A stretch of DNA of 27,535 nucleotides from a virus (taxonomy: Duplodnaviria > Caudoviricetes), in IMG/VR virus record IMGVR_UViG_3300033076_000337, positions 1-27,535 of that record; one strand, written 5' to 3'. The notes beneath the pieces were generated by a model, which saw only the letters and a list, made by a program, of their open reading frames with translations, did no database searches and had not been told where the DNA came from. Both the position numbers and the translations under genes were made by a program. Positions 6,691-27,535 of the stretch are shown piece by piece (the first letter of the stretch is position 1; the number at the start of each line of letters is the position of its first letter).

Positions 6691-6893
6691 TGTAAGCCCC
6701 ATTTAATTTTAAGCCACACACGTTCGTGAATGTAATAATCAATGCTTAGTAAAATGTGCAATGCAGTTGCAAAGCCAGTGGCACTAGCAATGTCTCCAGT
6801 AAACAGATACGTCCATAAGATAGTAAACAACCATGCAGTAATACGATAAGTGATCATTCTGACCACTGTGCGCTTATGTGTTTCTTGGATCAT
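6687..6893 (-). CDS. DUF2061-like small membrane protein
   Basis: 'ETHKRTVVRMITYR...YYIHERVWLKIKWG' fits the DUF2061 pattern, with two hydrophobic segments. ATGA overlap with queE. Confidence 0.7.
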   Translation of the reverse strand: MIQETHKRTVVRMITYRITAWLFTILWTYLFTGDIASATGFATALHILLSIDYYIHERVWLKIKWGLQ

Positions 6894-7747
6894 TTGCCCC
6901 ATCCATTTCCCCAAAGGTCGACATGTAGACGTGGACTATAGTTGTAGCCTTTGCTACATGCCCAGTCAGCAACTCTAACTCTATTCTGCTCGTAAGGAGC
7001 AACAACACCACCTTGTGGCATTACATACACAGGACCAGCAAAGCCCACAGCGCGATATTGTGCAACAGCACGATCTACTTCTGCAAAGTGTTCTTCTGTT
7101 TCTACAACAAACTTCAAGTAAGTAAAGCCGTAGTCTTGGTATGTACGCACAATCTCTGGACGGATAGCTTCATCCCATGCTTCACCGCTGGCGCTTAGTT
7201 TAGGACTAACACTAAATGTAATTTCGTTACCAGCAATGTCGCCCCAGTCTAACAAGTAGTCGATAAACTTTCCTTGTAGTTGTTGAGTACCGTTTGTTTC
7301 AAAAGTTAAGTTACGTAGATCTGCCATGCGTGGATGCGACAGCAATTCTTCATATGCACGTTGCCAACCTAGCAATGGTTCACCGCCAGTAATAACTAGA
7401 TGTACGTCATTGCCATTGTCTTGTACCCACTTGTTGTTGGGTGTTAGTGCCAACAGCTTGTCTACTAACTCTTCTGTAGTGTATGTTGGGCTAAGTTCCT
7501 TAAATGCAGGATGCCAACTTGCATAACTGTCGCAACCAGTATTAACTAGAGGCAGTTCTTCAAACGTGTTGTACATGTGTACAATCTGTGCAACGTCATC
7601 TGCTTCTGTACTCTTCTCGCCGGGCTTGCAACCAAATCCAGCACAAGTAAAGTTACAGCCGAATGTACGTAAGAATACACTAGGCACACCAACAAAGCGT
7701 CCTTCGCCTTGCAAACTATAAAATTTCTCAGATACCTTGATCTTCAT
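6890..7747 (-). CDS. queE: 7-carboxy-7-deazaguanine synthase (radical SAM)
   Basis: 'EKFYSLQGEG...G.PSVFLRTFGCNFTC', 'GCDS', 'VITGGEP', 'ETNG', 'SVSPK', 'PRLHVDLWG'. Confidence 0.92.
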   Translation of the reverse strand: MKIKVSEKFYSLQGEGRFVGVPSVFLRTFGCNFTCAGFGCKPGEKSTEADDVAQIVHMYNTFEELPLVNTGCDSYASWHPAFKELSPTYTTEELVDKLLALTPNNKWVQDNGNDVHLVITGGEPLLGWQRAYEELLSHPRMADLRNLTFETNGTQQLQGKFIDYLLDWGDIAGNEITFSVSPKLSASGEAWDEAIRPEIVRTYQDYGFTYLKFVVETEEHFAEVDRAVAQYRAVGFAGPVYVMPQGGVVAPYEQNRVRVADWACSKGYNYSPRLHVDLWGNGWGK

Positions 7748-10506: not shown

Positions 10507-11187
10507 TTATCTCTTGCAGTTGTTTACAATGTTCATGAATTCATTGCGTACAGCAGGTTCATGTTTAAAGCAACCACCTAATTTACTTGTAACAGTACTA
10601 GATCCTGTGTCTTCTACACCACGCGATTTAACGCAATAGTGTTGGGCATCAATCACAACAGCAATGTCATCTGTTTCGAGAATGTATTGCAATGCGTGAT
10701 AGATTTGTTCTGTTAGACGTTCTTGAATCTGCGGACGCTTGCTAAAGTATTCAACCACACGATTGATTTTACTTAGGCCTAAAACCTTTTGCTTGGGAAT
10801 ATAAGCAACAGTGGCCAAGCCATCAATAACAACAAAGTGATGTTCACAATTACTTTGGACATTGACGTTACGTTCAATAACCATTTCGTCGTATTTCATT
10901 TTGTTATCTACAGTTGTACACTTAGGAAATGCTTCGTAGTCTAGACCCCAAAAGATTTCGTTGACATACATTTTTGCCACACGCTTGGGTGTTTCAATAA
11001 GACTGTCATCGGCGAGGTCTAAACCCAATACCTGCATGATGTGGGTAAAGCTCTTTTCAATCTCGTCGATTTTATCTTTACGATCCATATTGTGCTGGAA
11101 CGTAGGAGTTTCCACGCCCATTGCTACTAGATGCTCATGTACACGTTGACCCAATTCTGGGTCGGTTTTTGTCTTGTTATATGACAT
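10507..11187 (-). CDS. folE: GTP cyclohydrolase I
   Basis: 'ETPKRVAKMY', 'SNCEHH', 'GLSKINR', 'RPQIQERLT', 'HYCVKSRG'. Confidence 0.97.
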   Translation of the reverse strand: MSYNKTKTDPELGQRVHEHLVAMGVETPTFQHNMDRKDKIDEIEKSFTHIMQVLGLDLADDSLIETPKRVAKMYVNEIFWGLDYEAFPKCTTVDNKMKYDEMVIERNVNVQSNCEHHFVVIDGLATVAYIPKQKVLGLSKINRVVEYFSKRPQIQERLTEQIYHALQYILETDDIAVVIDAQHYCVKSRGVEDTGSSTVTSKLGGCFKHEPAVRNEFMNIVNNCKR

Positions 11188-11250: not shown

Positions 11251-11721
11251 TTATTTAACATTGTTCTTTAAATTTTCAGCTTCAGCTACACGCTTACGTA
11301 GACTGCTGGAGCTAAAGCTATGATCTCTACCATTAAACACTAGCTCAATACCACGTTGCTCACATTCCATACGGCCTGTAAAGTTTTTGTCGCGATACTC
11401 TACTCCCAGTATTCTAACATCAATAGGAAGTATGAGCAAGAGGTCAACCAAGTCTTGTTCGGTATTATACACAACAATTTCGTCCACATAGCGAACAGCG
11501 GCCAATTGGATTTGCCGTTCGACTATGCTTTGAATTGGTGCGTTCTTTTCTGGACGATCCCATTGTGCATTGTTTTGCAATCCAGCAATGAGATAGTCAC
11601 AGTGATTTTTGGCTTCGGCTAGCATTGCTATATGGCCAGCATGTAGCATATCAAATTGGCTAAAGGTAATTCCTATCTTTAAGCCTTTGTCTTTGAGTTC
11701 TCTAACCTTGCTAAAAATCAT
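11251..11721 (-). CDS. cytidylyltransferase-like (TagD/RfaE-II HxGH family) nucleotidyltransferase
   Basis: 'FSQFDMLHAGH', 'SIVER', 'YVDEI', 'RDHSFSSSSLR'. Confidence 0.9.
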   Translation of the reverse strand: MIFSKVRELKDKGLKIGITFSQFDMLHAGHIAMLAEAKNHCDYLIAGLQNNAQWDRPEKNAPIQSIVERQIQLAAVRYVDEIVVYNTEQDLVDLLLILPIDVRILGVEYRDKNFTGRMECEQRGIELVFNGRDHSFSSSSLRKRVAEAENLKNNVK

Positions 11722-12797
11722 TTAATGTTCCTTAGAATACCATCTGCACTAAAGAAGTTGTGTTTAACAAGATCCTTAGTTTGCACAATAGTTTCAAAGT
11801 GACCTTGATTCTTAAGAGCAGTCATAGTTGTACGAATGTAATCAACCATTCTATCCTTGTAATTCAAGTAACTGTCAAAACTTTCTGTCCATCGCGAATC
11901 GTACTTAAAGTCTGGCGGATACATTTCTGTATAGCTTAACCTATTGGGCATCATAGGAAATGAATTAACACACAATGCTTCATAGCAACTAATACCTAAA
12001 GTCTCCTGCAAGTTAGCACTAAACACAATCCTACTACGACCTAATAGTTCGTGGTATTCATGTTTTGTTAGTTGTTGCTCTTGTGCTACTACCCAATTGT
12101 ATTCAGGCATAGCGGCGGCAAGATCCTTAAAGATATCTAATTGCTTTTCAGGAGCAATACGATGTGGGAATAGGATAATGTCTTCTTTAGGCAAGTCTTT
12201 AAACGGTGCTAAAGTCTCGTCTAAGTATTCCATCGGCCAGCCACTGCGTACAATCTTACCTGTTTGCAATTGTTCTTTGATCCACCACTCTGCACCGTCT
12301 GCAAAAACTTCTGCAAACATTTTGATATGGAAGTCGGTGGCAAAGTAGTTATGGTCAACAGCACTAAAGAAACTAATCTCTGCGTGTCTAACCCATTTAG
12401 CATCGCCTATCAGTCTGCCCAAGAAGTCTTGCGGGTCATAACTGCCAGCATGCCATAAAGCATGAATAGTTACAGGAATCTGTAACAGTTCGCTCATGTA
12501 CTTTAGGTTAATGATACCTGGGTGCCAAGCATCAGTAAACAAAAAGTGATCACCGGGACGAACGGCTCCGTCACAAAATAAACGGCCCATTTGCTCAACT
12601 TGTACAGACTTATATATGTTAGTCCCACCAAAATTAAGAAAAGCGCCTGGAGTGGTAGCACTAGGGATATCCGTAGGGCCGTCAATAATTTGAACATTGT
12701 GTCCTGCCTTTCGTAGTAGTTCAGGTACATGAGTCTTCCATTGACCCGTGTACCTTGTTTCTACGCTTTCTAAATCAACTAGAAAGACGTTCGACAT
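11718..12797 (-). CDS. GT-B glycosyltransferase (GT4-like)
   Basis: 'FPHRIAPEKQ' and 'SANLQETLGISCYEA' (E-x7-E donor-binding motif). TAATG coupling at 12797. Confidence 0.85.
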   Translation of the reverse strand: MSNVFLVDLESVETRYTGQWKTHVPELLRKAGHNVQIIDGPTDIPSATTPGAFLNFGGTNIYKSVQVEQMGRLFCDGAVRPGDHFLFTDAWHPGIINLKYMSELLQIPVTIHALWHAGSYDPQDFLGRLIGDAKWVRHAEISFFSAVDHNYFATDFHIKMFAEVFADGAEWWIKEQLQTGKIVRSGWPMEYLDETLAPFKDLPKEDIILFPHRIAPEKQLDIFKDLAAAMPEYNWVVAQEQQLTKHEYHELLGRSRIVFSANLQETLGISCYEALCVNSFPMMPNRLSYTEMYPPDFKYDSRWTESFDSYLNYKDRMVDYIRTTMTALKNQGHFETIVQTKDLVKHNFFSADGILRNIK

Positions 12798-13087
12798 TAT
12801 TGCTTCCACGCACTTTTATACACACCAACGTGGATCTTCAGCTTCTTAGGACTGCGATCCTCTGTTAGTTGAATTACTGCATCAAATGTTACAGAATTCT
12901 CTTTGTATTGTTCCTCTGGAAGGTCATACCCATAAATGAGACGATCCTTCTGCAAGTCACGCAAGTATGCGTGGAACAAGTCTGCTACTAGGTAACCACT
13001 ACCTTCGTACATAACACCATCATATGGCTCGGCAATTTTAAGTAGGTCATACTTAATATTGTCCATGCTAATCATGGGTCTAATCAT
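12797..13087 (-). CDS. hypothetical protein, about 96 aa
   Basis: ATG 13087 follows the upstream stop at 13092. Exact start uncertain. Confidence 0.65.
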   Translation of the reverse strand: MIRPMISMDNIKYDLLKIAEPYDGVMYEGSGYLVADLFHAYLRDLQKDRLIYGYDLPEEQYKENSVTFDAVIQLTEDRSPKKLKIHVGVYKSAWKQ

Positions 13088-13091
13088 TGGC

Positions 13092-13457
13092 TTAGTATTC
13101 GATGTATGCGCCATTTTCGTCGTCCTCGGAAATATCGATCCGGACACTACGTCCTGGATACTTAGATGAGATTTGATTGTATAAGTCTTCTGACATCATT
13201 TCACAACTCTTAAAGTCTAGTTGTAAAACGCCGTCTTTATATAAGTTCTCTAACCAGCGTTTAAACTGGATGAACTCAATGTCCCTGTCGTCGTGTGTTA
13301 CACTGATCCATACCTTAAAGTGGAAAATGTGACGATGTGGGTAGCCTAAAAAGCTAACATCATATTCGTCGCCAGTTGCCAACTTAGGGTCAGTTAGTGC
13401 GGCCGGGTATTTGTGAATACCTTCTTTTTGAAATTTAACGTAAATCCATTTTTGCAT
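13092..13457 (-). CDS. dpdL: QueD-paralog T-fold protein, DpdL-like (candidate CDG decarboxylase)
   Basis: His ligands 'EGIH...LGYPHRHIF'. LxxxHRHxF replaces the QueD CxxxHGH motif (the DpdL signature as I recall it). Also 'SCE' and 'EDDENGA'. Located in a dpdA/folE/queE context. Confidence 0.7.
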   Translation of the reverse strand: MQKWIYVKFQKEGIHKYPAALTDPKLATGDEYDVSFLGYPHRHIFHFKVWISVTHDDRDIEFIQFKRWLENLYKDGVLQLDFKSCEMMSEDLYNQISSKYPGRSVRIDISEDDENGAYIEY

Positions 13458-13459
13458 GG

Positions 13460-13978
13460 TTACTCCTTAATAGGCGTGTCGCCAATATAGTCTTTCCAGT
13501 CAGTGTATACTTCTCTGGATTTCAATGTGTCAAGCGGATGGCACCAGACTCCTGGGTTACTGTGTCCCCAAGTAGTGTCATCGATCTTCAACGTTGCATT
13601 GTAGTTGTACAACTTAATGTACGGCAACTTAACACTAATCATAGGAATGAATGTAAAGAATTCATTCCATCCTTCTTCGTGAATGTCGTTAGCAAATTCA
13701 ACACCAAAGTCTAATGTAACCCAATACCCTTGTTTTAGTAATGGTGTAATCATAGCGTCCCACTTGCGCCAATCTTCTTGGCTCTTAGGTTGGAAACTTT
13801 GACTGGTACCAAAGTACAAATGTCTTAGGTTATTATCAGTGGCGTGTTTGATAATTTCTTCTACTGGACGGACTCCAACAACAAACAAAGTCTTTTCATT
13901 CTTCATTGCTGTGTTCTCGACTTCCGTGCCGACGAAGTAAATTACTTGCTGTCGTCCTTGTGTATCAAGTTCTAGCAT
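13460..13978 (-). CDS. conserved phage hypothetical protein (GTEVE...KIDD...SNPGVWCH), 172 aa
   Basis: Tightly packed between the dehydrogenase and the DpdL-like gene. No family recognised. Confidence 0.8.
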   Translation of the reverse strand: MLELDTQGRQQVIYFVGTEVENTAMKNEKTLFVVGVRPVEEIIKHATDNNLRHLYFGTSQSFQPKSQEDWRKWDAMITPLLKQGYWVTLDFGVEFANDIHEEGWNEFFTFIPMISVKLPYIKLYNYNATLKIDDTTWGHSNPGVWCHPLDTLKSREVYTDWKDYIGDTPIKE

Positions 13979-14873
13979 TGTCGTTCCATTTAATGTACCC
14001 CCTGGAATATCCAGCAGGTCTGTTTAATCCGTCAGTAAAAGCCTGTTGCCACTCTGTATCTCTATTATACTCCTTGGACCAGAATCTGTCAACATTAATG
14101 TCTCCATTAGTTATCCAGTATTCAGCATCCTTCATACACTGATAAAATTTATCAGTACGTGGACTAGGAAATATAACAGTACATGCCTTCCAAAGAAGTT
14201 TTGCAAAGTTGGTCTGCACTTCTTTTTCTACACCCATAACAACTAAGGCTTCGTTGTTTAACATGTCTTTGTTAAAAACATCGTTGTTAGGACTCAAATC
14301 AATTACAACATCAAATGTGCCTTCGTATTGTGGTTTTAGTACACTACCCCAAAGTTCTTTGTTACTGTGTCCATATACAGTAATATCAAAATCAATGTGA
14401 TTGAGTAAGATAGTATTATAAGCCACCCATGCTAGAAACCCGCTACCTAGAATTAAGAGTCTTCGTCCCGGGCCGCTTCGTTCGGCAATTTCTCGAATGG
14501 GTTGTTGTACCACGTTAATGCCGCAAGCCACTGGCTCCAAAATATATCTTGGTAAAGGCTCTGGAACCTTAACATACTCTCTAGTACGAACATTGTATTC
14601 GTCTGCGTATCCTGGTTCTCCTCTTGTTGCGACATAGTCACCTACCTTTACATCAGTTACATCTTGGCCTAGTAGGATTACTTGACCCAAACCTTCATGC
14701 CCTTGCATGTTCAATGGTAAAGGTCCAAAGTTACCCTGCATCATATCAATGTCACTCCGGCAAACGCCGGTCATAACACTACGTACACGGATATCGGTTG
14801 GACCTAAATCAGCAACAACAAATTCAGTTTCAATAAATTCGCCGTTGCCTGTAGTTGCTAACACTCTATTCAT
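13965..14873 (-). CDS. Zn-dependent medium-chain dehydrogenase/reductase (sugar-alcohol dehydrogenase-like)
   Basis: 'GVCRSD', 'GHEGLG', 'VKVGDYV', 'LEPVAC', Rossmann-like 'ILGSGFLA'. No structural-Zn Cys4 lobe. ATGA overlap. Confidence 0.88.
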   Translation of the reverse strand: MNRVLATTGNGEFIETEFVVADLGPTDIRVRSVMTGVCRSDIDMMQGNFGPLPLNMQGHEGLGQVILLGQDVTDVKVGDYVATRGEPGYADEYNVRTREYVKVPEPLPRYILEPVACGINVVQQPIREIAERSGPGRRLLILGSGFLAWVAYNTILLNHIDFDITVYGHSNKELWGSVLKPQYEGTFDVVIDLSPNNDVFNKDMLNNEALVVMGVEKEVQTNFAKLLWKACTVIFPSPRTDKFYQCMKDAEYWITNGDINVDRFWSKEYNRDTEWQQAFTDGLNRPAGYSRGYIKWNDNART

Positions 14874-15748
14874 AATGCTAATTGTTCGTGGATCCAAATG
14901 TCTTGTGCCAGTTGATTCTGCCAAAACTCTTTATTGTCTTTATTCTTTAGTGCATGTTGGATCATAGCTTTGTAAGCACTTTCTGGGCACAGGCCTAGCT
15001 CGTGTTTGACTGCACTATTTTTCATTCCAAAGCTAATGTAAACATCATCAGCTTTATCGTCTTTCCAGTTTGCACTAATGGTCCACTTAGTATCGCCGTT
15101 GACGAATTCCATTTTACAGAAGTCGTCTACATCATACACACCTTGTTTGTTTACAGTACCATACTCAGTATCTGTAATTGTATTTAGGTCATGATTCTGT
15201 AAAGCCTGAAGTTGTATTCTATTGCCTTTAGTGTAATCTGTCAAGGCCACGTAGTAGCTTAACAAGTGAGGAACCAAGTCCCTACTAACACCACCATATG
15301 CCAAGGCCCTGTTAGTGAACCAACTACCTGGGTTAGGTACTCGGTTCTTACTGTTCCAAATAACATGTACAGTTGAACTTTGGTCAGCAAGGCGTTTGAA
15401 GTCCTGCAAAGTATCACGGTACTGGTTATTCTTTACCATCATGAATTTAGTATTTGGAAAGTCTTCTACTAAACGCTTCCAAGACATTGCATCTTTGACT
15501 CCTGGCTTTTCAACAAATATAATGCCAGCAAAGTTAGCCACTTCCCTAGCAATTTTTTCGTGTGTAAAGTTTGGAGTGCAAATGTTAACAGTATCAAAAT
15601 AGCCATGTGTAGTGATGGCATCTTGTACAGTTTCAAAATCGGCATCGCGATTTGGGTCAACTGTGACGACAGTATGACCCAATTGTTCTAATACTGGGCG
15701 ATAGACTGCGTTGCCAAAGCCCATGCCCACTATTAAACTAATTGTCAC
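14870..15748 (-). CDS. Gfo/Idh/MocA-family NAD(P)-dependent oxidoreductase
   Basis: 'IVGMGFG', 'ICTPNFTH', 'IFVEKP', 'GGVSRDLVPH'. GTGA overlap with the dpdA stop. Confidence 0.9.
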   Translation of the reverse strand: MTISLIVGMGFGNAVYRPVLEQLGHTVVTVDPNRDADFETVQDAITTHGYFDTVNICTPNFTHEKIAREVANFAGIIFVEKPGVKDAMSWKRLVEDFPNTKFMMVKNNQYRDTLQDFKRLADQSSTVHVIWNSKNRVPNPGSWFTNRALAYGGVSRDLVPHLLSYYVALTDYTKGNRIQLQALQNHDLNTITDTEYGTVNKQGVYDVDDFCKMEFVNGDTKWTISANWKDDKADDVYISFGMKNSAVKHELGLCPESAYKAMIQHALKNKDNKEFWQNQLAQDIWIHEQLAL

Positions 15749-17274
15749 AGAAGTCCTTCTAACAATTGTTCGCCCTGCTCAACTGTTTCAGGATCATCAA
15801 ACATGTTACTGTCATTGTCCTTACCAGCATCGTCAACTTCGAACAAGCTATTAAATCCTGCAACTGTACTCTTAAGAGTCTTAGCGCCGTTAAAGTTTGC
15901 CAACAAGTCTTGTGCTTTGTCTAACTCTGTATATGGAGTTTGACTTGTAAACACACGATTAACAAGTTCGTTCATGTAAACTACATTACGTGGAACCCAT
16001 TCGCTTAACTCGTCTGCACCTTTTTTAACTTTGTGCCAAGCTGATGGATCTGGTTGATGCATTGCACAAGCCGCATCGTTTAATGCGTTTGCACGTTGTA
16101 CACTTTCAATGTGCTGATACACATTGTGACCCATCATTAAGAAGTAGCTGAAGCTATCCCAAGAAGTCTTGCCTTCTTTGCCTAACTTGTTCAGCATACC
16201 TGGCGCATACCAACACAAGTCACCCATAGTCATTCTTTCGCCTACTGGACTGTTCCATGGCCAAGCAATCTTACTACCGCTCAATTTCTTATTATCGATA
16301 GCCTTAGTCATCAAATAGCTAAAGCGATCATTTTGATGAACGTGTTGTGTATATACTTGTCCATATGCTGTGGCTAGGAATGGGCTAGCACAGTCAAACG
16401 TAACCTTCATATTAGGGTTAACGTGTTGGCGAATATTACGTTGAACGGCCGTTAATAAGCAGGCAAGTTCAAGTTTGCTAGTACCCAAGAAGTGAATAAC
16501 ATCACGACCAGGCTCTAACAGTTTCTCGTCACGTAGTTTAATTAAGCGGCGCAACATGAGGTCTACGTCCTTCATGTTGTTACCTCCCATAGCCCAACCT
16601 TCGAATGGATAGTGCTTAACTGCTTCGTACCAAATCTCTGCGTCAACGTTATTGCCGCCTTGCAGAACGTTCAAGAACTTAGTCTTACCTTGACGATGCT
16701 TTAAGAAGAAGTCGTTGTTAAACAATGTTCCCTTCAAGCAATCGTTAAAGTCTTTGAGTCCTGTACGAGGTTGGTTAATAGGATTACTTGCCCATGTAGG
16801 TAAGTCAAGTACCATGCTATAATCAGCAGTAAACTCTAACCAGTTAAGGATAGCCATACGTGTTTTATCTGCTTCTCCGACGTAGCCAGCGTCGCCTTGC
16901 TTTTCCCAGAAGTGCTTCCAGTCAAAGTTAATAACACCTTTACCAATTTGGAACCCGCCAGAGTCTCCAAGGATAAACGTGTTAGGCTTGTCACGTTGTT
17001 GTACCATGCTTTCCTGCACCCAAGACTTTTTCAGGTCTAATTGTGCGTGTCCTGCTGAGTACAATGCGTGACTATAATGAAAGTATGCTTTTTCCTTATT
17101 AAGGAAGTTCATACCTTCAATACCATTCTCAAACTCAGCAGGAATACGGCTAGCTTCAATATACTCGCCTTCCTGTTGTTTTGAGATAAAGGTATTGTAG
17201 AATCCGCTAATACTAGGCAAGAATATTGCATAGTCTTTATTGCGCGGATCTAAGTCCACTGTTGTTTTACTCAT
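15745..17274 (-). CDS. dpdA: DpdA/TGT-family 7-deazaguanine DNA transglycosylase
   Basis: TGT-barrel motifs 'GDSGGFQ', 'MVLDLP', 'LNVLQG', 'IHFLG', 'TFDCASP', 'HN'. Lacks the tRNA-TGT CxCxxC zinc site. Adjacent to the clamp, polymerase and folE/queE. Subclass not determined. Confidence 0.85.
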   Translation of the reverse strand: MSKTTVDLDPRNKDYAIFLPSISGFYNTFISKQQEGEYIEASRIPAEFENGIEGMNFLNKEKAYFHYSHALYSAGHAQLDLKKSWVQESMVQQRDKPNTFILGDSGGFQIGKGVINFDWKHFWEKQGDAGYVGEADKTRMAILNWLEFTADYSMVLDLPTWASNPINQPRTGLKDFNDCLKGTLFNNDFFLKHRQGKTKFLNVLQGGNNVDAEIWYEAVKHYPFEGWAMGGNNMKDVDLMLRRLIKLRDEKLLEPGRDVIHFLGTSKLELACLLTAVQRNIRQHVNPNMKVTFDCASPFLATAYGQVYTQHVHQNDRFSYLMTKAIDNKKLSGSKIAWPWNSPVGERMTMGDLCWYAPGMLNKLGKEGKTSWDSFSYFLMMGHNVYQHIESVQRANALNDAACAMHQPDPSAWHKVKKGADELSEWVPRNVVYMNELVNRVFTSQTPYTELDKAQDLLANFNGAKTLKSTVAGFNSLFEVDDAGKDNDSNMFDDPETVEQGEQLLEGLL

Positions 17275-17496
17275 TTATCGTCTTTCGTCATCTTCCCAAT
17301 GATCAAGGCTTTCTCGATCATGTTCATGCTGTAGTCTTTGCAACCTAGCAATCTCGTCTCTAAGCATTAGCTTTTGTTTCTTCATGTCATGTAACTTTGT
17401 TTCTTGTACATGAGGATGATTTCTTTCCATGTCTGCAATTTGTTTGTCTAACAAATGATGAGATTCTGTCAGATGTTTGATGCGGTTTTCGTACAT
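17275..17496 (-). CDS. DUF465/YdcH-like small coiled-coil protein
   Basis: 'H..LDKQI...MKKQKLMLRDEI' pattern. GGAG SD. Confidence 0.7.
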   Translation of the reverse strand: MYENRIKHLTESHHLLDKQIADMERNHPHVQETKLHDMKKQKLMLRDEIARLQRLQHEHDRESLDHWEDDERR

Positions 17497-17508
17497 GGAA
17501 ATCTCCTA

Positions 17509-18249
17509 TTAACGAGTCATTGCAGGCAGAATGTAATTGTACAAACCGATGCCGCTGTCAACGCTAATCATACAAGCGCCCTGATTGCTGAAGTTAACAG
17601 CACAAATACCACCCATGCCCAACTTGAGAATGTTCAAGAATTGGTTAAGTGGGAAACTCAAGTCACCTTTGATGTTGCCACCAACGTTGTTAGCGAATGT
17701 ACGCTTACCAAAGTGGCTACCACCGTTTGCGCTACCAAGTTCAAACACTAAGTTGCCATTGTCTGTGCGTACAGTAAATGTTGGCTCAATGCTAGAGTAA
17801 ATGCTAGCGGCCTGTGCTAAGTCTTGTACCTTTGCCTTAGTCGGTTCAAATGTAACGTCCCATGTGGCGCCTTTGAACTTAACTGTTTGGATCTGTGTAT
17901 CGATTACTTCTTTGCTCATCAAACGATACTTGTCCGAGTTACCATCTGGATCTTTGAACACTAGTGTTTCTGGCAAGTCAACGCCGTTGCGGTTAGTCTT
18001 AACTACATCAACTGTTGTGCCGTCTTTGGCATACAGGTTACAAACACCGTTCAAGAAACCCAAGTTACCCATACCAAATTCGCCGACAAAGTCGCCTTCT
18101 GGTTTGTGTAGTTTGGCATTCAAGATAACTGTCTTGTCCTGATCAATTGCCGCAATCTGAGTTTCCTCTGCGGTCCCTGTTACCTTGAGACTGTCAATAA
18201 TGCCAAGTCCGCTGGTATGTCTTACGATATCTAATACGATGTCTTTCAT
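17509..18249 (-). CDS. DNA sliding clamp (gp45/PCNA-like)
   Basis: 246 aa, directly downstream of the B-family polymerase. Beta-rich two-domain pattern ending 'YNYILPA'. AAGGAG SD. Called from size, position and general resemblance. Confidence 0.7.
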   Translation of the reverse strand: MKDIVLDIVRHTSGLGIIDSLKVTGTAEETQIAAIDQDKTVILNAKLHKPEGDFVGEFGMGNLGFLNGVCNLYAKDGTTVDVVKTNRNGVDLPETLVFKDPDGNSDKYRLMSKEVIDTQIQTVKFKGATWDVTFEPTKAKVQDLAQAASIYSSIEPTFTVRTDNGNLVFELGSANGGSHFGKRTFANNVGGNIKGDLSFPLNQFLNILKLGMGGICAVNFSNQGACMISVDSGIGLYNYILPAMTR

Positions 18250-18269
18250 CTGTGTATCTCCTTTGTGTG

Positions 18270-18298
18270 AGTATATAGGTTTATTTAGGTCGTGTCAA
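18270..18298 (-). promoter_or_regulatory. sigma70 promoter TTGACA-17-TATACT with an embedded TAAATA late-like box
   Basis: Minus strand TTGACA cgacctaaataaaccta TATACT, in the polymerase-clamp gap. Confidence 0.8.
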
Positions 18299-18301
18299 CA
18301 A

Positions 18302-20947
18302 TTATTCAAATAATAGGTTGAACGTGTTTTTCATTTTAGTTGACTGCAAGTCCCAGTTTAGAACACCGAGCAAGTTGTCAATCTTGTTATCAATAATAGT
18401 CTCTTCCATGGCCTCTTCGTCAAACGGAAGTTCTTTGAACCATTGTGGCAACCTTTGTTCATCTGTTGGATAAGCTAGGCTGGTCATGTTCAATGGATTG
18501 CTCTTTAGTTTGCAAACAACAACTTTCATACCGTCAACTGCGTCCATACTAAATTGGTCTCCATGCATCTTTTTAATGCGGTTCCAATTGATAGCCGCCA
18601 TTGCATGTCCAATTCCACATTTACCTGTTTTATTGAATACTGCGGTATGTTGTGTTAAGTTGTTTACACGCTTTGGAGTTCCTTTTTCCCAGGCAGGTTT
18701 GGCCTTAAAGTCTTTTCTAAATTCAAGAATCTTGTCTAGAATCTCTTGACGTTCTACACCAGTTAGTAACATCAATAAAATCTCTTCAAGAAACTTTTGC
18801 ATGAATTCAGGAGTGTCTGCTCTCTTAAGGTCCAAGCCCATGGCTTTTACTTCGCCTGGTTCACCATCCAAATCTTTACGCTTGCCTTCCTTATCATAGA
18901 TAAGAACAGCATAACGCTTTTTGGTAATGAACAAGCCTTTACTAGCAACAACTTCTCGACCAGCTTTAATTGGTGCCGCATATACGCTAGGAACATTAAA
19001 TGCCTTATTCATAAATGCTGGAAAGGTATCATTAACTTCGTTACTTACAGTATCGTACAGTTCAACAATCTTTTCCTTGCTCCAATCAATCTCGCCACGA
19101 CTTACTTCGCCTTTGAATACAGGCCACGCACTAAAGTATACCGAGTCAGTATCACCGTAGATAATAGTTTCACCTACGTGATTGTACTCGCCTGTAAACA
19201 TAGCATTAACCTGTGCGGCCATGTGTCTAGCAATACAACGACCTGTTAGTGTAGTTGATTGTCCTAAGCGTTGGTCGAAGAACCTACTACCTGCGTTCAA
19301 CAAAGCGCCGTATGCAGAGTTCAAGTTAATCTTCTTAACTAATTGTCGCTTGTCCCAGAACTCAAATTCTTTTTCGTTGTCGATACAACTCTTTGCTTTC
19401 TTTTGTAGTTCCTTACGTTCACTGTACCAACGTTCAAGCAAGCCTGGAATAACACCCTTCTCGGTAAAGTTAAAGATTGTACCATTGGCACTGATCATTA
19501 AGTTTTGTCCGCTGAGGAAAATCATTTCAAATGCTTGTTTTCCACTGACCTGTTCACTACGTCCGTTCTCCCAGTCAATAATAACATCAGTGCCAATGTC
19601 CTGATTCATTACTGCTTCGTATTCCATCGTAGCAAAACGTCCGTCCCAACAATCAGCAAAGCTCTTGCCAGCAGCCATACCATCGCGAATCATCTTCTTG
19701 GTCATGTCCAAACGAAGTTGTCCCACGATAGTTTCTGGACTCATGTTAAGCGCACGAATAACAGACGGATACAGACTGTTCAAGTCCATACTGCCAATCC
19801 ATTCGTGTATACCCTTTTTAGGATACGCAACATAAGCACCTGCGGCCTGTGTTTCAGCATGGTCTCTTGTTCTGTCAGGGACAATTAGTCCACGATTGTG
19901 TGCTTCTCTAATAACAGCTTGGTCAGTAACTGCAACAGCACCCATTGTTGTTTGGAACAATACACAGTTAGCATGTGCCAAAACGTTTACTAAGTCAATG
20001 TACTGTAGTTTCTTGTCCAGCTTGACCAACAGCATAACGTCTTGTCTGTTATAAGCAATAAACTTTTCAAAGTCATTGTTGTATAACTGATCCAACGTGC
20101 CTTCATAGTGAACTTTAGTTTCGCCTAGCTCATATTCTCCAACATAGTCAAGTCGATATGTGTGAAGTTCATGATATGTGTACTTGCGATACAGTTCAAG
20201 ATAGTCAAGGTGTACACGACCTATCAAGTCATAGGTAACAGCAGTCTTACCATACTTTTCAAATTCACGTGCCTTAGGCTTTTGTCCCCACAAGCAGAAA
20301 CGCTTGCAATGGTCTTGGCCCATTACTCGTGCAATACGATTAAAGGTATATGGAATGTCGAAGCCTTCACTGTTCCATCCGCTTAAGACATCTGCATCGT
20401 CCACCAACTGAATGAACATGTCTAACATTTCTTCTTCAGTGCTACACAATACAGTATTCTCAAACCTGTTACAGATTTCTTCTGCTTGCTCAGTTGTAAG
20501 CCTGTCCGGCTTCAAGCATACAGTAATAAGTCTTTCCAACCAACTCAAGTACAATGTAATACTGGTAATGTTGTTGAATGGATCGCTAGGGTCCGCAAAA
20601 CCTTTCTCCTTGTCGAAGTTAACTTCAATGTCGAAGAAACAAACGTTTAGTTCAGGAGTATCGCCGTTGGGATACTCGTCTTCTAAACAACGGAACACTG
20701 GCTTGATATCACTTTCGTATAGCTTCTTGCCGCTGTAGATACGCTTTTCTTTTTCAAACGCCTTGTGATTGTTGACAGCAACTTTGCTCAGTGGCTGTCC
20801 GTAAATGCTTTTGTACTTGCCCTTGGCGTCAGGGTAATAAAACACATACTTGGCAGGAATGTCCTTGAACTTCCTTTGACCGTTGACACGCTCAACAACT
20901 TGAATTAAGTCTTTTTGTTTATTGTAGAATGCGTCTACGTAACTCAT
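18302..20947 (-). CDS. family B DNA polymerase (T4 gp43-like), 881 aa
   Basis: Exonuclease motifs 'FFDIE', 'WNSEGFDIPY', 'YNRQDV'. Polymerase motifs 'DLNSLYPS', 'KKINLNSAYG', 'YGDTDS', 'KKRY'. Confidence 0.98.
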   Translation of the reverse strand: MSYVDAFYNKQKDLIQVVERVNGQRKFKDIPAKYVFYYPDAKGKYKSIYGQPLSKVAVNNHKAFEKEKRIYSGKKLYESDIKPVFRCLEDEYPNGDTPELNVCFFDIEVNFDKEKGFADPSDPFNNITSITLYLSWLERLITVCLKPDRLTTEQAEEICNRFENTVLCSTEEEMLDMFIQLVDDADVLSGWNSEGFDIPYTFNRIARVMGQDHCKRFCLWGQKPKAREFEKYGKTAVTYDLIGRVHLDYLELYRKYTYHELHTYRLDYVGEYELGETKVHYEGTLDQLYNNDFEKFIAYNRQDVMLLVKLDKKLQYIDLVNVLAHANCVLFQTTMGAVAVTDQAVIREAHNRGLIVPDRTRDHAETQAAGAYVAYPKKGIHEWIGSMDLNSLYPSVIRALNMSPETIVGQLRLDMTKKMIRDGMAAGKSFADCWDGRFATMEYEAVMNQDIGTDVIIDWENGRSEQVSGKQAFEMIFLSGQNLMISANGTIFNFTEKGVIPGLLERWYSERKELQKKAKSCIDNEKEFEFWDKRQLVKKINLNSAYGALLNAGSRFFDQRLGQSTTLTGRCIARHMAAQVNAMFTGEYNHVGETIIYGDTDSVYFSAWPVFKGEVSRGEIDWSKEKIVELYDTVSNEVNDTFPAFMNKAFNVPSVYAAPIKAGREVVASKGLFITKKRYAVLIYDKEGKRKDLDGEPGEVKAMGLDLKRADTPEFMQKFLEEILLMLLTGVERQEILDKILEFRKDFKAKPAWEKGTPKRVNNLTQHTAVFNKTGKCGIGHAMAAINWNRIKKMHGDQFSMDAVDGMKVVVCKLKSNPLNMTSLAYPTDEQRLPQWFKELPFDEEAMEETIIDNKIDNLLGVLNWDLQSTKMKNTFNLLFE

Positions 20948-22194: not shown

Positions 22195-22200
22195 TATTTA
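22195..22200 (-). promoter_or_regulatory. TAAATA late-promoter-like box upstream of the lysozyme
   Basis: Resembles the T4 late TATAAATA element and is followed by an AGGAG SD. It overlaps a stop codon, so it could be chance. Confidence 0.45.
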
Positions 22201-23376
22201 CCAAATATACGGAAACAGTTGCTCACTTTTAGTATGTCTAATTGCGTCCAGGTCTTTCAAGTACTTACGAGTAGATTCAATGTCATTGCTTTGATTTTTA
22301 AGCAAATTGTCCACTAAATCAGGCATTTCAGAAGTTAAATTATGCTCTTTTAACCACTGTCTGTGAAAGCGGGTCATACGGCTTGCTTCTTCCCTATGTT
22401 CAGCAGGCAGTAAATCAGCTTTTAAGTTTTCAGGGAAACTGATAACGTTGTATTGATAGTTGTGTATACCCGTAGCTGTGTATATTGCACGTTCAATCTT
22501 GTCTAAGTCCAAGATGTTTAGTATGCTAATGCTAGGGGTAATTTTAATATCAATGTGCGGGCACTGGTTTTTAACCTTTATTAGGTTCTCCAGTGTTTGT
22601 TTCCAACTTGCACCCCAGCGAATGTAGTCAAATCTATCCCATACGTTGTCAACGCTGACCAGCATACTGATATGGCTAAAATTGTTCCATAAGTCTAGTA
22701 CGTTTTTCTTCTTGTACTCTAAATTACTAAGGTTAGTAATGTACGAAATGTTAACTTGCTTTTTCTGTTCAGCAAAGTATTCTAGAATTTCGTAGTGTTG
22801 ATCTGTTACTAACGGTTCCCCGCCTGCAAAGGTGACGTTTTCTACATCGTCTAAATGTTCAGTTGTTAATTGTTCCATGATATCCAAGCTCAGTGTTCTG
22901 TCGTGCCCGCTGTCTCTGCCTAGCTTAATCCAATCAGTGTGCCACCGGCTACTAAATGTTGGACCACAGCTAACACAAGCTAGGTTACAAACGTTGCTAA
23001 ATCTAATGTCCAGGTATTTAAGTTTAAAATCACTAAAGTCAGTGGGATGATACTTAAAGCTATTAATACGCATACTGTCCATGCCCACAGCTTCTTGTTC
23101 GTAGCACTTATAGCAGGTACTTACAGGTTCCCCTGCCAGCATCTTACGTTTGATTTCCTTGTATTCATCGCCGTTAACGATGTCGATGATTTTAGTTTTG
23201 TTTAAGTTGCCAATTGGCCGCATAGGATCGCTCAGACAGCAAGGGAAAGCCTTGCCATCCGGCCATGCATGTACATGTACCCATGGTAAAGTACAGATGC
23301 TTTTATTGATAGTAGGATCTAAGGATCTCGTACCACTCGGGGAATGTTTGTTTAAAGCTCTGTTTACGATATTCAT
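22198..23376 (-). CDS. radical SAM protein with N-terminal twitch/SPASM-like domain
   Basis: 'CTLPW...PCC...CYKC', 'CNLACVSC', 'GGEP'. Start uncertain (23376 or 23388). Confidence 0.9.
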   Translation of the reverse strand: MNIVNRALNKHSPSGTRSLDPTINKSICTLPWVHVHAWPDGKAFPCCLSDPMRPIGNLNKTKIIDIVNGDEYKEIKRKMLAGEPVSTCYKCYEQEAVGMDSMRINSFKYHPTDFSDFKLKYLDIRFSNVCNLACVSCGPTFSSRWHTDWIKLGRDSGHDRTLSLDIMEQLTTEHLDDVENVTFAGGEPLVTDQHYEILEYFAEQKKQVNISYITNLSNLEYKKKNVLDLWNNFSHISMLVSVDNVWDRFDYIRWGASWKQTLENLIKVKNQCPHIDIKITPSISILNILDLDKIERAIYTATGIHNYQYNVISFPENLKADLLPAEHREEASRMTRFHRQWLKEHNLTSEMPDLVDNLLKNQSNDIESTRKYLKDLDAIRHTKSEQLFPYIW

Positions 23377-24493
23377 CTTGTTCTTCATTGCGCTTCATGA
23401 ACAAGCGCATCTTCTCTGGGTCTGGACTACTAGACATAAAGTTAAGTATTGGCAGTATCTCTGGTTGATACTCTTGCAATGGCGATAACTTCTTTACCAA
23501 AATCTCTTTGATGCCTGGATCAAGTGCCGCAATGCTTTGATCATATGGTGCATGTAGTAAGTTATACCAAACACTGGTGCCAATGTTCTTTACTATCTCG
23601 TTGGTAATTTCGTCTAAGTAGAATATGTTGTAGTTACTTATAGTTGCGTTAGTGCTTAATCTGATCCAACTGTGTTCTTTGAACTGCAAAACGTGTTCAC
23701 GTACCTTATCCCATTTGCTAGGATAACGTTGGTAGTGATGACGTTCGCCGATATCGTCCACACTAACTTGAACATCTACTAATTTGAACTGCTTCCATAG
23801 TTCAATCTGTTCTGCGTTGGGCATGATACTGCCATTTGTGTTATAATGAATAGTTTGATTCTTACTATAACCCCGCTCAACGCTGTGCTGTAGTATAGTC
23901 CACATGTTATCAATTAATAGTGGCTCGCCACCATACATGTCCATATGCTCAATGTTAGGCAATGCTTGCTCTAAATTGTTCCAAATGTTTTGATCTGGCT
24001 TCCAAGCATCACGCATGGCCTTAAAGGGCTTGTGAAATTCTATTTTACTTTCAGTGGGCTTACGCAGGTCGTGCCATTCGTCGATCCATTGGCTACTATT
24101 CCATGGATTACAGATGCGACATTTCAAGTTGCACAAGTTGCCCATCTTTAAGTCTACAATCTTAATAACGTGTTCGCCTGTTGCGATAGACTTAGAGCCG
24201 TTTAAGTACTCTTTACTGTCTCGCATACGCTTACTGTTTTGGCCAGCACGTTCTTCATCCCAACAACGCTTGCAGTTAGGGTGCTTAAATCCAATGTTCA
24301 AGTCTCTACGTAGCTTGTCCATCCATGGACTATCAAAGGCTTCCTGCATACTGTCTTGGCTAGGCCGATATGACGATCCGTCTTCCTTGCGTATAGCAAG
24401 TTCACTCATACAACAAGTCTTATAGTGCCCATCTGGTGTGGTACTAATTGCGGCATGAGGATGTATGCAGAATGTTTGCTTGTTAATATACAT
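23303..24493 (-). CDS. radical SAM protein with N-terminal twitch/SPASM-like domain
   Basis: 'FCIHP...TCC...CKRC', 'CNLKCRIC', 'GGEP'. Start 24493 or 24496. Confidence 0.9.
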   Translation of the reverse strand: MYINKQTFCIHPHAAISTTPDGHYKTCCMSELAIRKEDGSSYRPSQDSMQEAFDSPWMDKLRRDLNIGFKHPNCKRCWDEERAGQNSKRMRDSKEYLNGSKSIATGEHVIKIVDLKMGNLCNLKCRICNPWNSSQWIDEWHDLRKPTESKIEFHKPFKAMRDAWKPDQNIWNNLEQALPNIEHMDMYGGEPLLIDNMWTILQHSVERGYSKNQTIHYNTNGSIMPNAEQIELWKQFKLVDVQVSVDDIGERHHYQRYPSKWDKVREHVLQFKEHSWIRLSTNATISNYNIFYLDEITNEIVKNIGTSVWYNLLHAPYDQSIAALDPGIKEILVKKLSPLQEYQPEILPILNFMSSSPDPEKMRLFMKRNEEQDEYRKQSFKQTFPEWYEILRSYYQ

Positions 24494-25697
24494 CATACCA
24501 TTCCTTAAACCATGGATGCAAGTTCAATAAGTTTTGTTTACGGTTTGCATCCATAAACTTCATACGCTTGATAAAGTCTTGTTTGTCTTTTTCGTCTGGC
24601 TCTGGCAAGAACGCAACCTTTTCTAATGTCTTAACTAGGTTAGATAGTGCGTAGTGATTACTATAACGTTGATTAATATGCTCTACACCTTGTAGGGCTA
24701 GTCTCATTCTGTTGCTACCAGGAACAACTTCTGGACGCATACATGTAGGATGATCCACATTGATAACAAAGATGTTAAAGTCTAGTTCGCCTACTAGGAT
24801 ATCAGCAGTACCTTTAATACTAGGTAGTGTAAGATTGCTTAGTGTAGTGTGTATGCAGGTCTTGTTATTAGGACGCTGGCTGGACCAGTACTTTAGTTCT
24901 TTAAGGTTACTGTAAATCTTGTCCCATTTAGCAGGCCAGCGGACATACTCGTAGTATTCTTCTACACCGTCAATGCTGGCGTTTAGGTTAACTTCTTTAA
25001 AGTGACTCCACTTTTCGTACCACTTGCTACCAATGGTAGTAATGTTGCTATTGTACTCTAAGGAAATGTTCTTGGCAAAGTTTAGTTCAATTAGTAAATC
25101 TAAGAACTCTTCTTGCTCGTCCATGATTAATGGCTCACCACCAATGATGTAAACGCTTTTTAAATCATGTCCTTGTTCACGGACAACATCAAACAATCTG
25201 CTACTCTTAACCCAGCTGGTCTTTTCTAGAAAGTCCATGTCGATTACAGTATATGCGTTGGCAGGATCTTTGTTTACTTCCTGTGCTAACAAGCTACTAC
25301 TATATGGATGACACATACGGCAAGCAAGGTTACATTTATTACCAAAGTCTAGCTCCAGTCGTTCTAATTTAACTGTGGCATCACCCTGCTTAATGTTCTT
25401 GTACGTGTCGGGGAACCTGTATGTGTTATTGATTTGTCTATAACTCTCGGCACCAATGTCTTCTAGTTTCCAGCATCGTTCACATTGTACTGGCTTATGG
25501 CCAGCAAGCATTATGTCCCTTACTTTTTGTATAGCAACACCTTGTTGCCATTGTAAGTTAGGACGTTGTGTTACTGGGCCTGGCCAGCCTTCACCACTGA
25601 GACCGCCATTGATTGCATTACAACATAGGCGTTGGTGCCCGCTTTGACCAATGCTTAGTGTGTTAAAGGGTAATACGCATAGTGTATCATTTGACAT
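24483..25697 (-). CDS. radical SAM protein with N-terminal twitch/SPASM-like domain
   Basis: 'LCVLPF...LCC...CERC', 'CNLACRMC', 'GGEP'. Confidence 0.9.
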   Translation of the reverse strand: MSNDTLCVLPFNTLSIGQSGHQRLCCNAINGGLSGEGWPGPVTQRPNLQWQQGVAIQKVRDIMLAGHKPVQCERCWKLEDIGAESYRQINNTYRFPDTYKNIKQGDATVKLERLELDFGNKCNLACRMCHPYSSSLLAQEVNKDPANAYTVIDMDFLEKTSWVKSSRLFDVVREQGHDLKSVYIIGGEPLIMDEQEEFLDLLIELNFAKNISLEYNSNITTIGSKWYEKWSHFKEVNLNASIDGVEEYYEYVRWPAKWDKIYSNLKELKYWSSQRPNNKTCIHTTLSNLTLPSIKGTADILVGELDFNIFVINVDHPTCMRPEVVPGSNRMRLALQGVEHINQRYSNHYALSNLVKTLEKVAFLPEPDEKDKQDFIKRMKFMDANRKQNLLNLHPWFKEWYDVY

Positions 25698-27033
25698 ATT
25701 TCATGCAATCTTTCAAAAAGTTTTCGTATTCTGGAAATGTTTTAATAAAGTCAGTGCCACGCCTGCGGTCGTGTTCCATAAAGAATCTGTAGAAGTCTGC
25801 TTTAGCATTGATTTCTCGTACAAGAGACAATGTGTGCTTCTTGAAATGTGTACGCACACGTTCCATGCGCTCTACTTCTACTTCACTGAATCCTTTATTT
25901 AGATGTTGTTTCATAAATGCAATATCTGCATCTATGTACTTTACAAAGTCCGGTGGCAATATGCTAATGCTCCAGTGGTCGGGTTCTTTCAAGTGAGGAG
26001 TAATGAACTCAACTCTATTACCATACAGTTGACGCCACTCTAATATCTTTTGCAGTAGTTGATTAAAGCTGGGCAGTACCATGTTATTGTATGTTACCAT
26101 AATTTCAACGCTGGCATTGATATCTTTAAAGTTATCCATGATAGTTTTAAAGTTCTGTTCCCATACTGCACAGTCTAATCCAGAACGAATATACTCAGCA
26201 GGCTTACCCCATGTGTCAATGCTAACGTGCATACGATAGTTCTTGATTGCTTTCTTTGTAAGCAATGTACGCACACGTTCGCTTAGACGTTCTATCAGTG
26301 CAGGCTTAACTCCTAAGTTACTGTTAATCAACAAGGTAAGATGTGGAGCAGGTTCTGCTTCTAGCTTATCAAGTAGTTGCCATGTATTTTGATTAAGCAT
26401 AGGCTCACCACCAGTAATACGTAGCGTTTGTAAATCTTTAACTAGACTAGGCCACCATGCCCAAAAGGCTTTTACGTAAGGATTACTTTCGTCATCACTT
26501 TCGTAGTATTCCCTGTCTTTAATAAAATCTATACTGTACTGTTTGGTCAGCACAGGAAATGGACCATTTGCTTTAATGTCGTTGATCCAACTGTTACTGA
26601 CTGTAGGTGTGCAATACCCGCACATAAAGTTACACACGTTGCCAAAGTTAACTTCAATGAACTTAGGATTAAAGTCTGCACCGGGATCTAAGTTTTTGAC
26701 AACTTCATATACATCCATGTCATTGGCGCTGTTGATAACTCGGTCACTGATGTGTCCGTTGTCTTCTACTTGCCAACAAAAGTTACACTCGCCTGGTCTC
26801 TTACCATCCAGCATTTCTGCTCTGCGTTCTTTTTTGTGCGCTGTGTTATGTAAGCCTGCAGGTGTGCGCTTGATATCTTTTATATCAATCTTATGCGGAT
26901 GCGGATGATAGCAACTATGGTTATCGCCCGTTTGCAAATACAATGTTTGCTGTGTCCACTTGAGTAAACAAAAGCCCTGTCCTACTTGGTCTAGTTTATC
27001 TCGTACGGATTTTAATCTGTCTAAATCAGCCAT
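25687..27033 (-). CDS. radical SAM protein with variant N-terminal twitch-like domain, 448 aa
   Basis: 'FCLLKW...HSCYHP...CNFC', 'CNFMCGYC', 'TGGEP'. Start reassigned to ATG 27033 (8-nt overlap with the upstream stop). Confidence 0.9.
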   Translation of the reverse strand: MADLDRLKSVRDKLDQVGQGFCLLKWTQQTLYLQTGDNHSCYHPHPHKIDIKDIKRTPAGLHNTAHKKERRAEMLDGKRPGECNFCWQVEDNGHISDRVINSANDMDVYEVVKNLDPGADFNPKFIEVNFGNVCNFMCGYCTPTVSNSWINDIKANGPFPVLTKQYSIDFIKDREYYESDDESNPYVKAFWAWWPSLVKDLQTLRITGGEPMLNQNTWQLLDKLEAEPAPHLTLLINSNLGVKPALIERLSERVRTLLTKKAIKNYRMHVSIDTWGKPAEYIRSGLDCAVWEQNFKTIMDNFKDINASVEIMVTYNNMVLPSFNQLLQKILEWRQLYGNRVEFITPHLKEPDHWSISILPPDFVKYIDADIAFMKQHLNKGFSEVEVERMERVRTHFKKHTLSLVREINAKADFYRFFMEHDRRRGTDFIKTFPEYENFLKDCMKYVK

Positions 27034-27535
27034 TTGTTTGTGTCTTGTGATGTTGGCTTCCCAACTCACCGTTGTCCAGTTTGTTCCATTCTTTGCCACA
27101 GCAGGTACTACATTGTCTGCTACGCATATTGTGGCCTTTGTAAATGCTACGTGGCAGGAACCTATCAAAGAACTGCCCTTTGAGAATTTGTGGCAATGTG
27201 TTCTTATGCAAACTTAGTGTATCCATGCCGCCTGCTAGCTCGATCATTTGAATACTTGCATCATCACTAATGTTCTTGAACGCCGCACCTTGTTTAGCAA
27301 CTTCCCACGGACGGTCGTCACTGATATGACGCCACGGCTCACCACCGATAAAGCAACATGGGAATACATGGCCGCTGGCACTAACAAATATTTCATTGAG
27401 TTGGTTGTTGCCACCCTTTTCGTGATGCTGTGCCCTGCAACTAACTTCGATGTCATTGTGCTTGAACTTGACCCATTCGTTTTTCTCGTTGTCCCATTCT
27501 CTGTGCTCAAGGCTAATCTGTTGCATCTTATCAAA
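27026..27535 (-). CDS. 3' part of a radical SAM/SPASM-like protein truncated by the window edge
   Basis: 'SC...EIFVSASGHVFPCCF...QCSTCCG' is a C-terminal twitch/SPASM Cys pattern. The frame stays open to the edge; the radical-SAM core itself is not visible. Confidence 0.7.
   Translation of the reverse strand, partial: FDKMQQISLEHREWDNEKNEWVKFKHNDIEVSCRAQHHEKGGNNQLNEIFVSASGHVFPCCFIGGEPWRHISDDRPWEVAKQGAAFKNISDDASIQMIELAGGMDTLSLHKNTLPQILKGQFFDRFLPRSIYKGHNMRSRQCSTCCGKEWNKLDNGELGSQHHKTQTNG

Follow-up and report, generated by a model that had tools for sequence, protein, structure and literature searches.

In phages T4 and RB69, the clients of the gp45 sliding clamp, namely the tail of the polymerase gp43, gp33, gp55 and a loop of the ligase, dock through a short hydrophobic or aromatic motif carried on a flexible linker. 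In cellular hosts, DNMT1 and UNG2 are clients of PCNA that modify or edit bases and bind it through a PCNA-interacting peptide (PIP) box. The T4 ligase holds an internal copy of the gp43 tail that binds gp45 with a dissociation constant of 10.7 uM (PMC6212786), and the T4 peptides EKASLDFLFG and EPEGLDFLFD illustrate how a polymerase-terminus motif is copied in a second protein (PMC6212786, PMC7892883). Here we describe a candidate for such a copy in a 27,535-nucleotide stretch of viral DNA (Caudoviricetes; IMG/VR record IMGVR_UViG_3300033076_000337, positions 1 to 27,535). This stretch, referred to as the window, forms a minus-strand block of 27.5 kb from a large phage; it comprises the whole record and represents a genome fragment. 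Its DNA polymerase ends in a peptide that is nearly repeated in the C-terminal tail of DpdA, a putative guanine transglycosylase of 509 aa. We consider it likely that this DpdA tail docks on the sliding clamp encoded between the two genes. With somewhat less confidence, we favor the fuller reading that a PA5oct-type DpdA3, held by its F-x-x-L-F tail on a PCNA-like clamp, exchanges G for a 7-deazaguanine in phage DNA that carries the clamp, at the replication fork or shortly behind it.

DpdA would share with the gp45 clients the short motif and the flexible linker. Unlike in T4, a base-exchange enzyme is the client here, its motif is spaced as hydrophobic-x-x-L-F instead of LDFLF, and the clamp of the window resembles PCNA at least as closely as it does gp45. 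The resemblance to the PIP-box clients lies in a PCNA-fold ring tethering a DNA-modifying enzyme and in the hydrophobic-x-x-aromatic spacing of the motif; those proteins differ in their cellular hosts and chemistry, and a Q at -7 is present in only 10 of 66 DpdA tails. Among DpdA systems, the DpdA3 locus of phage PA5oct has the same order of polymerase, clamp, small gene and dpdA as the window, with DpdL, QueE and a glycosyltransferase likewise nearby, and the DpdA homologue of phage Paride carries NSFNSLFD in its tail where the window has FNSLFE. The chemically studied DpdA3 of phage phiST, with 259 aa and no tail, differs from the long form found in the window, whose activity is predicted. 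The deazaguanine system of PA5oct has been noted, without a clamp link in the relevant passages (PMC7824862), and Cui et al. 2023 (PMC10516641) never use the word clamp in their main text. Among the papers listed by full-text searches of the open literature, none links a DpdA to a sliding clamp. Each element is known by itself, be it the enzyme class, the clamp or the mechanism of tethering; their pairing appears undescribed in print.

The family B polymerase (881 aa, 18302..20947, minus strand as are all genes and motifs given here; PF00136, E 1e-40; phrog_262, E 5e-197) terminates in KNTFNLLFE. Its last six residues, FNLLFE (aa 876-881, 18305..18322), are the positional counterpart of the clamp-binding tail of T4 gp43. 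In DpdA (15745..17274), AGFNSLFE occupies aa 472-479, and the 30 residues after it are mostly acidic; the predicted clamp-binding motif FNSLFE (aa 474-479, 15838..15855) is assigned from its conservation and from a weak complex model. An earlier reading of this DNA, made from the sequence only, had reported both peptides, and they are found exactly at the coordinates it gave, with five of six residues identical. The expected number of five-in-six matches to FNLLFE is 0.0025 for a protein of 509 aa and 0.046 over the 44 window genes scanned. When a profile built from 66 polymerase tails only was run over the 9,014 positions of the window, the polymerase itself came first and the DpdA motif second. 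A third match in the window, GTFTDIFD in a 222-aa nucleotidyltransferase, was dropped because it is absent from a 66% homologue.

The sequence-only reading had also placed the DpdA motif in a probably disordered region, which agrees with the AlphaFold2 model, where the predicted local distance difference test (pLDDT) score is below 50 at residues 465-489 and approximately 57-61 at residues 491-509. The low-confidence tail (aa 465-509, 15748..15882) consists of a linker, the motif, the acidic stretch and a last helix. Since residues 465-489 score below 50, the motif is predicted to lie outside the folded core and not to be part of, or buried in, the barrel. In an alignment of 77 sequences, no column after P447 other than F478 is conserved at 90% or more. 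It is noted that the last amphipathic helix after the acidic stretch (aa 495-509, 15748-15790) forms a second conserved element, with L505 conserved at 90% or more in an alignment of 65 sequences; this helix is missing in a clade whose protein ends at the motif.

Conservation was examined in 159 loci, 135 of which contain a complete DpdA and the polymerase C-terminus, reduced to 66 representatives at 90% identity; a wider DpdA set held 193 sequences and 109 representatives. In 64 of the 66 representatives, the last residue of the DpdA motif (position 0) is F, and in 61 the residue before it (-1) is [LIMV]; the flanks vary. The complete [FY]xx[LIM]F pattern occurs in 38 DpdA and 57 polymerase sequences. 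With the genome's own polymerase left out of the polymerase-tail profile, the motif is the best 8-mer of the whole DpdA in 45/66. The expectation that the motif would be conserved in relatives was borne out in the wider set, in which hydrophobic-x-x-[LIMF]-F is found in 80/109 DpdA tails, against a mean of 8.9 and a maximum of 18 for shuffled tails. Seven of the 109 proteins continue for no more than four residues past the motif, and these are spread over at least three parts of the tree (a FastTree tree without support values, used for description only); one clade ends in a glycine-rich linker plus NNFSSLFE. Many distant relatives end in xxLF or xxLFxF, and many shorter ones have no tail; viral, phage and genome searches aimed at the genomes of these shorter forms gave mainly members of the main family or no match. 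In four large genomes the DpdA motif ranked 4 of 74,638, 1 of 82,755, 3 of 72,507 and 15 of 102,072 positions, with crudely called ORFs (open reading frames) and with the polymerases of these genomes, or near-identical ones, contained in the profile. The polymerase tail itself matches hydrophobic-x-x-[LIM]-F in 65/66 relatives. It is independent of DpdA, because Atu_ph07 and RaK2 have the same clamp family and similar polymerase tails and gave no tblastn match to DpdA.

The DpdA motif also resembles the polymerase tail of its own genome, as the sequence-only reading had noticed for the window. Where one tail deviates, the other tends to deviate alike: the two proteins of Vibrio phage 2.275.O end in NNDLFGW and NTDLFDW, and those of the L030 clade carry V-x-D-[IL]-F and [VI]-D-D-L-F. 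In a permutation over 16 clades, this co-variation gave p 0.002 (z 3.5, compared to z 1.4 for the best of 27 off-register controls), though p rises to 0.097 once the two most divergent clades, locus L159 and the L030 clade, are left out. Two later loci outside the permutation test agree by eye, L221 with terminal KAKSLFEF and KAMKLFNY and L302 with FF in both tails. Because the clades are not fully independent and the signal rests on few events, we regard the co-variation as supportive but not conclusive.

In a predicted complex of three clamp chains with DpdA aa 463-494, the score was 0.40 against 0.01 for the best control, which is rated as weak support. The peptide alone was scored; its pLDDT in the complex is 46-49, and at least 69% of contacts are shared between runs. 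The score mark was reached by 116/157 solved and 2/215 mismatched pairs, and the scores at or below 0.60 comprise only 18 of the 157 solved pairs together with both passing mismatches. Resemblance to solved complexes of PCNA with peptides may account for the pass. This model speaks weakly in favor of the earlier claim that the DpdA peptide binds the clamp, and docking is stated here as a prediction.

The clamp gene (246 aa, 17509..18249) was recognized by structure comparison. Searches of Pfam, PHROGs, NCBIfam and PDB profiles left the protein unidentified apart from a weak processivity-factor match (E 6e-4). Its model, with a pLDDT of 92, retrieves PCNA in Foldseek (E 4.9e-12). Superposition gives a VIA Z of 18.8 and a root-mean-square deviation (rmsd) of 3.0 over 222 aligned residues for archaeal PCNA, compared to a VIA Z of 16.4 and an rmsd of 3.4 over 214 aligned residues for T4 gp45 (6drt). 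By its model, the protein is a two-domain clamp of PCNA/gp45 fold, at least as close to PCNA as to T4 gp45. The structure comparisons thus uphold, at the level of models, both protein identities proposed from the sequence, the clamp fold and the fold of tRNA-guanine transglycosylase (TGT) for DpdA. A gp44-type clamp loader (phrog_168, E 5.5e-78) is located outside the window, in G001, a relative with a 97%-identical DpdA. It should be mentioned that the PA5oct gene at the clamp position, EST35_0314 (L339:5912-6658), is annotated as a 'structural protein' from mass spectrometry, and the Paride gene at the same place matches the clamp; this is either a misannotation or a packaged clamp in PA5oct.

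The 509-aa DpdA has no match in Pfam, PHROGs, NCBIfam or PDB-sequence profile searches. Its AlphaFold2 model (mean pLDDT 89) finds TGTs in all of the top 50 Foldseek rows, with a best E of 4.9e-8 and template-modeling (TM) scores of 0.40/0.53. Among cultured phages, it is best matched by the PA5oct/Paride group, with 37.6% identity over 96% to PA5oct QCG76197.1, and by Sinorhizobium phage Phosso and Vibrio phage 2.275.O. Supplement DS1 of Cui et al. 2023 (PMC10516641) lists QCG76197.1 as a DpdA3. The protein on which the DpdA3 subfamily was founded, CGPG_00065 of phiST (259 aa), aligns only faintly with the window protein (hhalign probability 7%, E 0.005, 91 columns); since it is half the size and so dissimilar, we assign the window protein to the long, PA5oct-type form of DpdA3, which would exchange guanine in DNA. 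An estimated 4,500 or so viral stretches match the patterns of this family. The CxCxxC zinc site that tRNA TGTs carry was found in 0/109 representatives and was likewise not seen in phiST DpdA3, so that it is not required for DpdA3. The motif DSGGxQ and residues D104, D157, H261 and D294 are invariant in 109/109 representatives. Going by the motifs of TGTs, we take D104, D157 and D294 to be the counterparts of the published active-site aspartates. In bacterial DpdA these are Asp95, Asp130 and Asp256 (PMC10164549).

The window also contains FolE (GTP cyclohydrolase I, 10507..11187; PF01227, E 1.7e-62), a QueE-like radical S-adenosylmethionine (SAM) enzyme (6890..7747; phrog_2076, E 2.4e-51, under the NCBIfam QueE cut-offs) and DpdL, the proposed 7-carboxy-7-deazaguanine (CDG) decarboxylase (121 aa, 13092..13457; 58% to PA5oct QCG76199.1, with the LxxxHRHxF signature). 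A QueD-like gene is present in G001. No QueC was found among the window genes covered by the library scan, the window being a genome fragment and the relatives not having been searched for QueC. Because FolE, QueE and DpdL are in the window and QueD in a close relative, the modified base would be plain 7-deazaguanine (dDG), as in phiST. PA5oct DNA resists five restriction enzymes, which has been read as modified G (PMC12191111). Full replacement of G is reported for phiST, CP220 and immuto_2-6A, and none of the DpdA3 enzymes has worked in E. coli according to the same source (PMC10516641).

By analogy with the T4 ligase loop and polymerase tail on gp45 (PMC6212786, PMC7892883), F474, L477 and F478 would most likely insert into a hydrophobic pocket on each clamp subunit. 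The clamp would be a trimeric ring whose three pockets are shared, or used in turn, by the polymerase and DpdA, and the flexible linker would let the DpdA barrel reach the duplex DNA leaving the ring. There, G could be exchanged for deazaguanine via the covalent intermediate proposed for bacterial DpdA (PMC10164549). Since phage clamps would load mainly on replicating phage DNA, modification would be biased to phage DNA. The fork timing and the phage-only targeting are the least supported steps of this scheme.

Several observations weigh against the reading. The co-variation p is 0.019 without L159 alone, whose motif was placed by hand, and 0.04-0.09 with nine coarse clades. The Phosso tails match poorly (VEGLF at one terminus, FNDLFTF at the other), with dpdA approximately 175 kb from the clamp. 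When proteins are ranked by likeness to the polymerase tail of their genome, DpdA comes second in two of four genomes and fails to reach the top seven in the remaining two. Only [LIM]F is kept in 17/109 tails, and 12/109 match neither pattern: six more degenerate sequences and a clade of six representatives without the motif, four of which show the clamp and the polymerase motif in the same locus, upstream. In T4, RNase H and ligase bind the clamp or have been proposed to do so; the window RNase H scores low on the motif, and no convincing motif was seen in RNase H termini or in the three ligases searched. The phiST DpdA3 (259 aa) and a CPt10 match (258 aa) are tail-less, and yet phiST is fully substituted with dDG. 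The closest precedent, the proposed T4 alpha-glucosyltransferase-gp45 pairing, embodies the same idea of a phage DNA-modifying enzyme on the clamp during replication, with a different enzyme fold. Its binding was not reproduced in vitro or in vivo according to a 2025 preprint (10.64898/2025.12.06.692756).

Fork modification and phage-only restriction are weakened as general rules by the clade without the DpdA motif and by phiST, whose G is entirely replaced although its enzyme is tail-less. The loss of the motif in one clade also means that the tether is probably an aid to efficiency and targeting and not a requirement. The tail as the explanation of full G replacement across DpdA3 was ruled out by the tail-less phiST and CPt10 proteins, of which the phiST enzyme achieves full substitution; the tail is thus not what makes DpdA3 complete, and it leaves that substitution unexplained. 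The phiST polymerase is Pol III alpha-like, from a reading of its ORFs. It is noted that DpdA in the motif-less clade (L233, L256, L307, L321, L322, L334) is encoded 3-5 kb further from the clamp gene, and that this clade forms a natural control for tail function.

We regard it as unlikely that the motif is a real binding site for some other partner, such as the DpdA core, a second subunit, the host beta clamp or the clamp loader. In favor of it, hydrophobic motifs of this length bind promiscuously, the complex was scored weakly with the partner below a pLDDT of 50, the T4-type clients RNase H and ligase are without a convincing copy, and the motif is lost where the clamp is kept. However, the single-chain model leaves the motif undocked from the core (pLDDT <50), and the motif follows the polymerase tail of the same genome while shifting between internal and terminal positions. 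It also lacks the Q-L with which the beta-clamp consensus begins.

A clamp-bound tail could alternatively serve an enzyme that makes a modified nucleoside or nucleotide near the polymerase, or that only removes leftover G after insertion of a modified dNTP. The invariance of the three aspartates and of DSGGxQ, features of DNA and tRNA transglycosylases, makes this improbable. In addition, the tested DpdA1 and DpdA2 modify DNA when expressed in E. coli (PMC10516641, PMC6884629), and clamp tethering suits an enzyme acting on duplex DNA.

The tail might also bind the clamp with no link to the fork, on clamps left on DNA or loaded at nicks, acting late as a processivity aid and with no preference for new DNA. 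T4 gp45 does serve late transcription away from forks (PMC7892883), a T4-late-like CTAAATA is found in the clamp promoter of 45/66 relatives, and all such modifications are regarded as post-replicative by Cui et al. 2023 (PMC10516641). The present observations fit either timing, but we hold this reading to be highly improbable; dpdA is located among replisome genes even when moved, as in Phosso and L222, where it lies beside primase and helicase. That the likeness is chance in a phenylalanine-rich patch of an acidic tail is scarcely credible: the loose [FY]xx[LIM]F does have seven occurrences among the window proteins, six to nine proteins per genome carry it in their last 45 residues, and the nucleotidyltransferase match is not conserved, but 80/109 tails against a shuffled mean of 8.9 strongly disfavours it, and the motif is retained when the remaining tail is lost.

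The docking of a PA5oct-type DpdA3 on a PCNA-like clamp therefore remains our preferred explanation. A more specific proposal is tentative, and we would give it slightly less than an even chance: in PA5oct/Paride-like phages, DpdA would be a dedicated replisome client bearing, besides the polymerase, the only conserved clamp tail in the replication region, co-evolving with the polymerase tail, and the exchange would be coupled to the fork and steered to phage DNA. In that case, the long DpdA3 would be fully active in a foreign host only together with its cognate clamp and loader. Clamp docking would also make DpdA a clear example of sliding-clamp binding by a DNA-modifying phage enzyme, the T4 alpha-glucosyltransferase case being disputed. 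The clamp tail bears on how phage transglycosylases reach high G substitution and find phage DNA, and the idea can be tested concretely and cheaply in the cultured phages PA5oct, Paride and Vibrio 2.275.O.

The gene order of the locus largely follows the sequence-only reading. The clamp gene does lie between the polymerase and dpdA; that reading had omitted a 73-aa DUF465 gene (17275..17496; PF04325, E 1.9e-12) which separates clamp from dpdA. This gene is optional, and in many relatives clamp and dpdA are directly adjacent. Where dpdA lies away from the polymerase and clamp, it directly precedes primase and helicase (L158:8992-13193; L222:4320-8010). The clamp gene has a TTG start codon in L016, L017, L019, L020, L045 and L056.

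The promoter proposed to be common to clamp and dpdA stands as a candidate from its consensus match only. A sigma70-like TTGACA-17-TATACT element with an embedded CTAAATA (18270..18298, minus strand) agrees with the consensus at 11/12 positions upstream of the clamp gene, and the window scan found no minus-strand terminator-like site from this element to the end of dpdA. The scan gave 18 matches in total, which is not above shuffles (21.1). A loose sigma70-like pattern is present at the clamp gene in 64/66 relatives and [CT]TAAATA in 45/66, both counted without a shuffle control. The nesting of the T4-late-like [CT]TAAATA in this element would perhaps make it a dual early and late promoter.

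Further genes surround dpdA. A 363-aa GT-B-like glycosyltransferase (11718-12809) is 44% identical to the PA5oct gene right after dpdA, and a 172-aa protein of no known family is encoded at 13460-13978. With redundancy included, they are found in approximately 205 and 237 of the fetched loci, respectively, and may introduce an additional modification, for instance a sugar. Directly after dpdA, the window encodes a Gfo/Idh/MocA-like oxidoreductase and a zinc alcohol-dehydrogenase-like protein (13965-15748); beyond this pair are cytidylyltransferase-like, phosphoribosyltransferase and HIT genes. At the other end of the block, four tandem radical SAM genes and a SPASM-like fragment (22198-27526) lie upstream of the lysozyme and polymerase genes.

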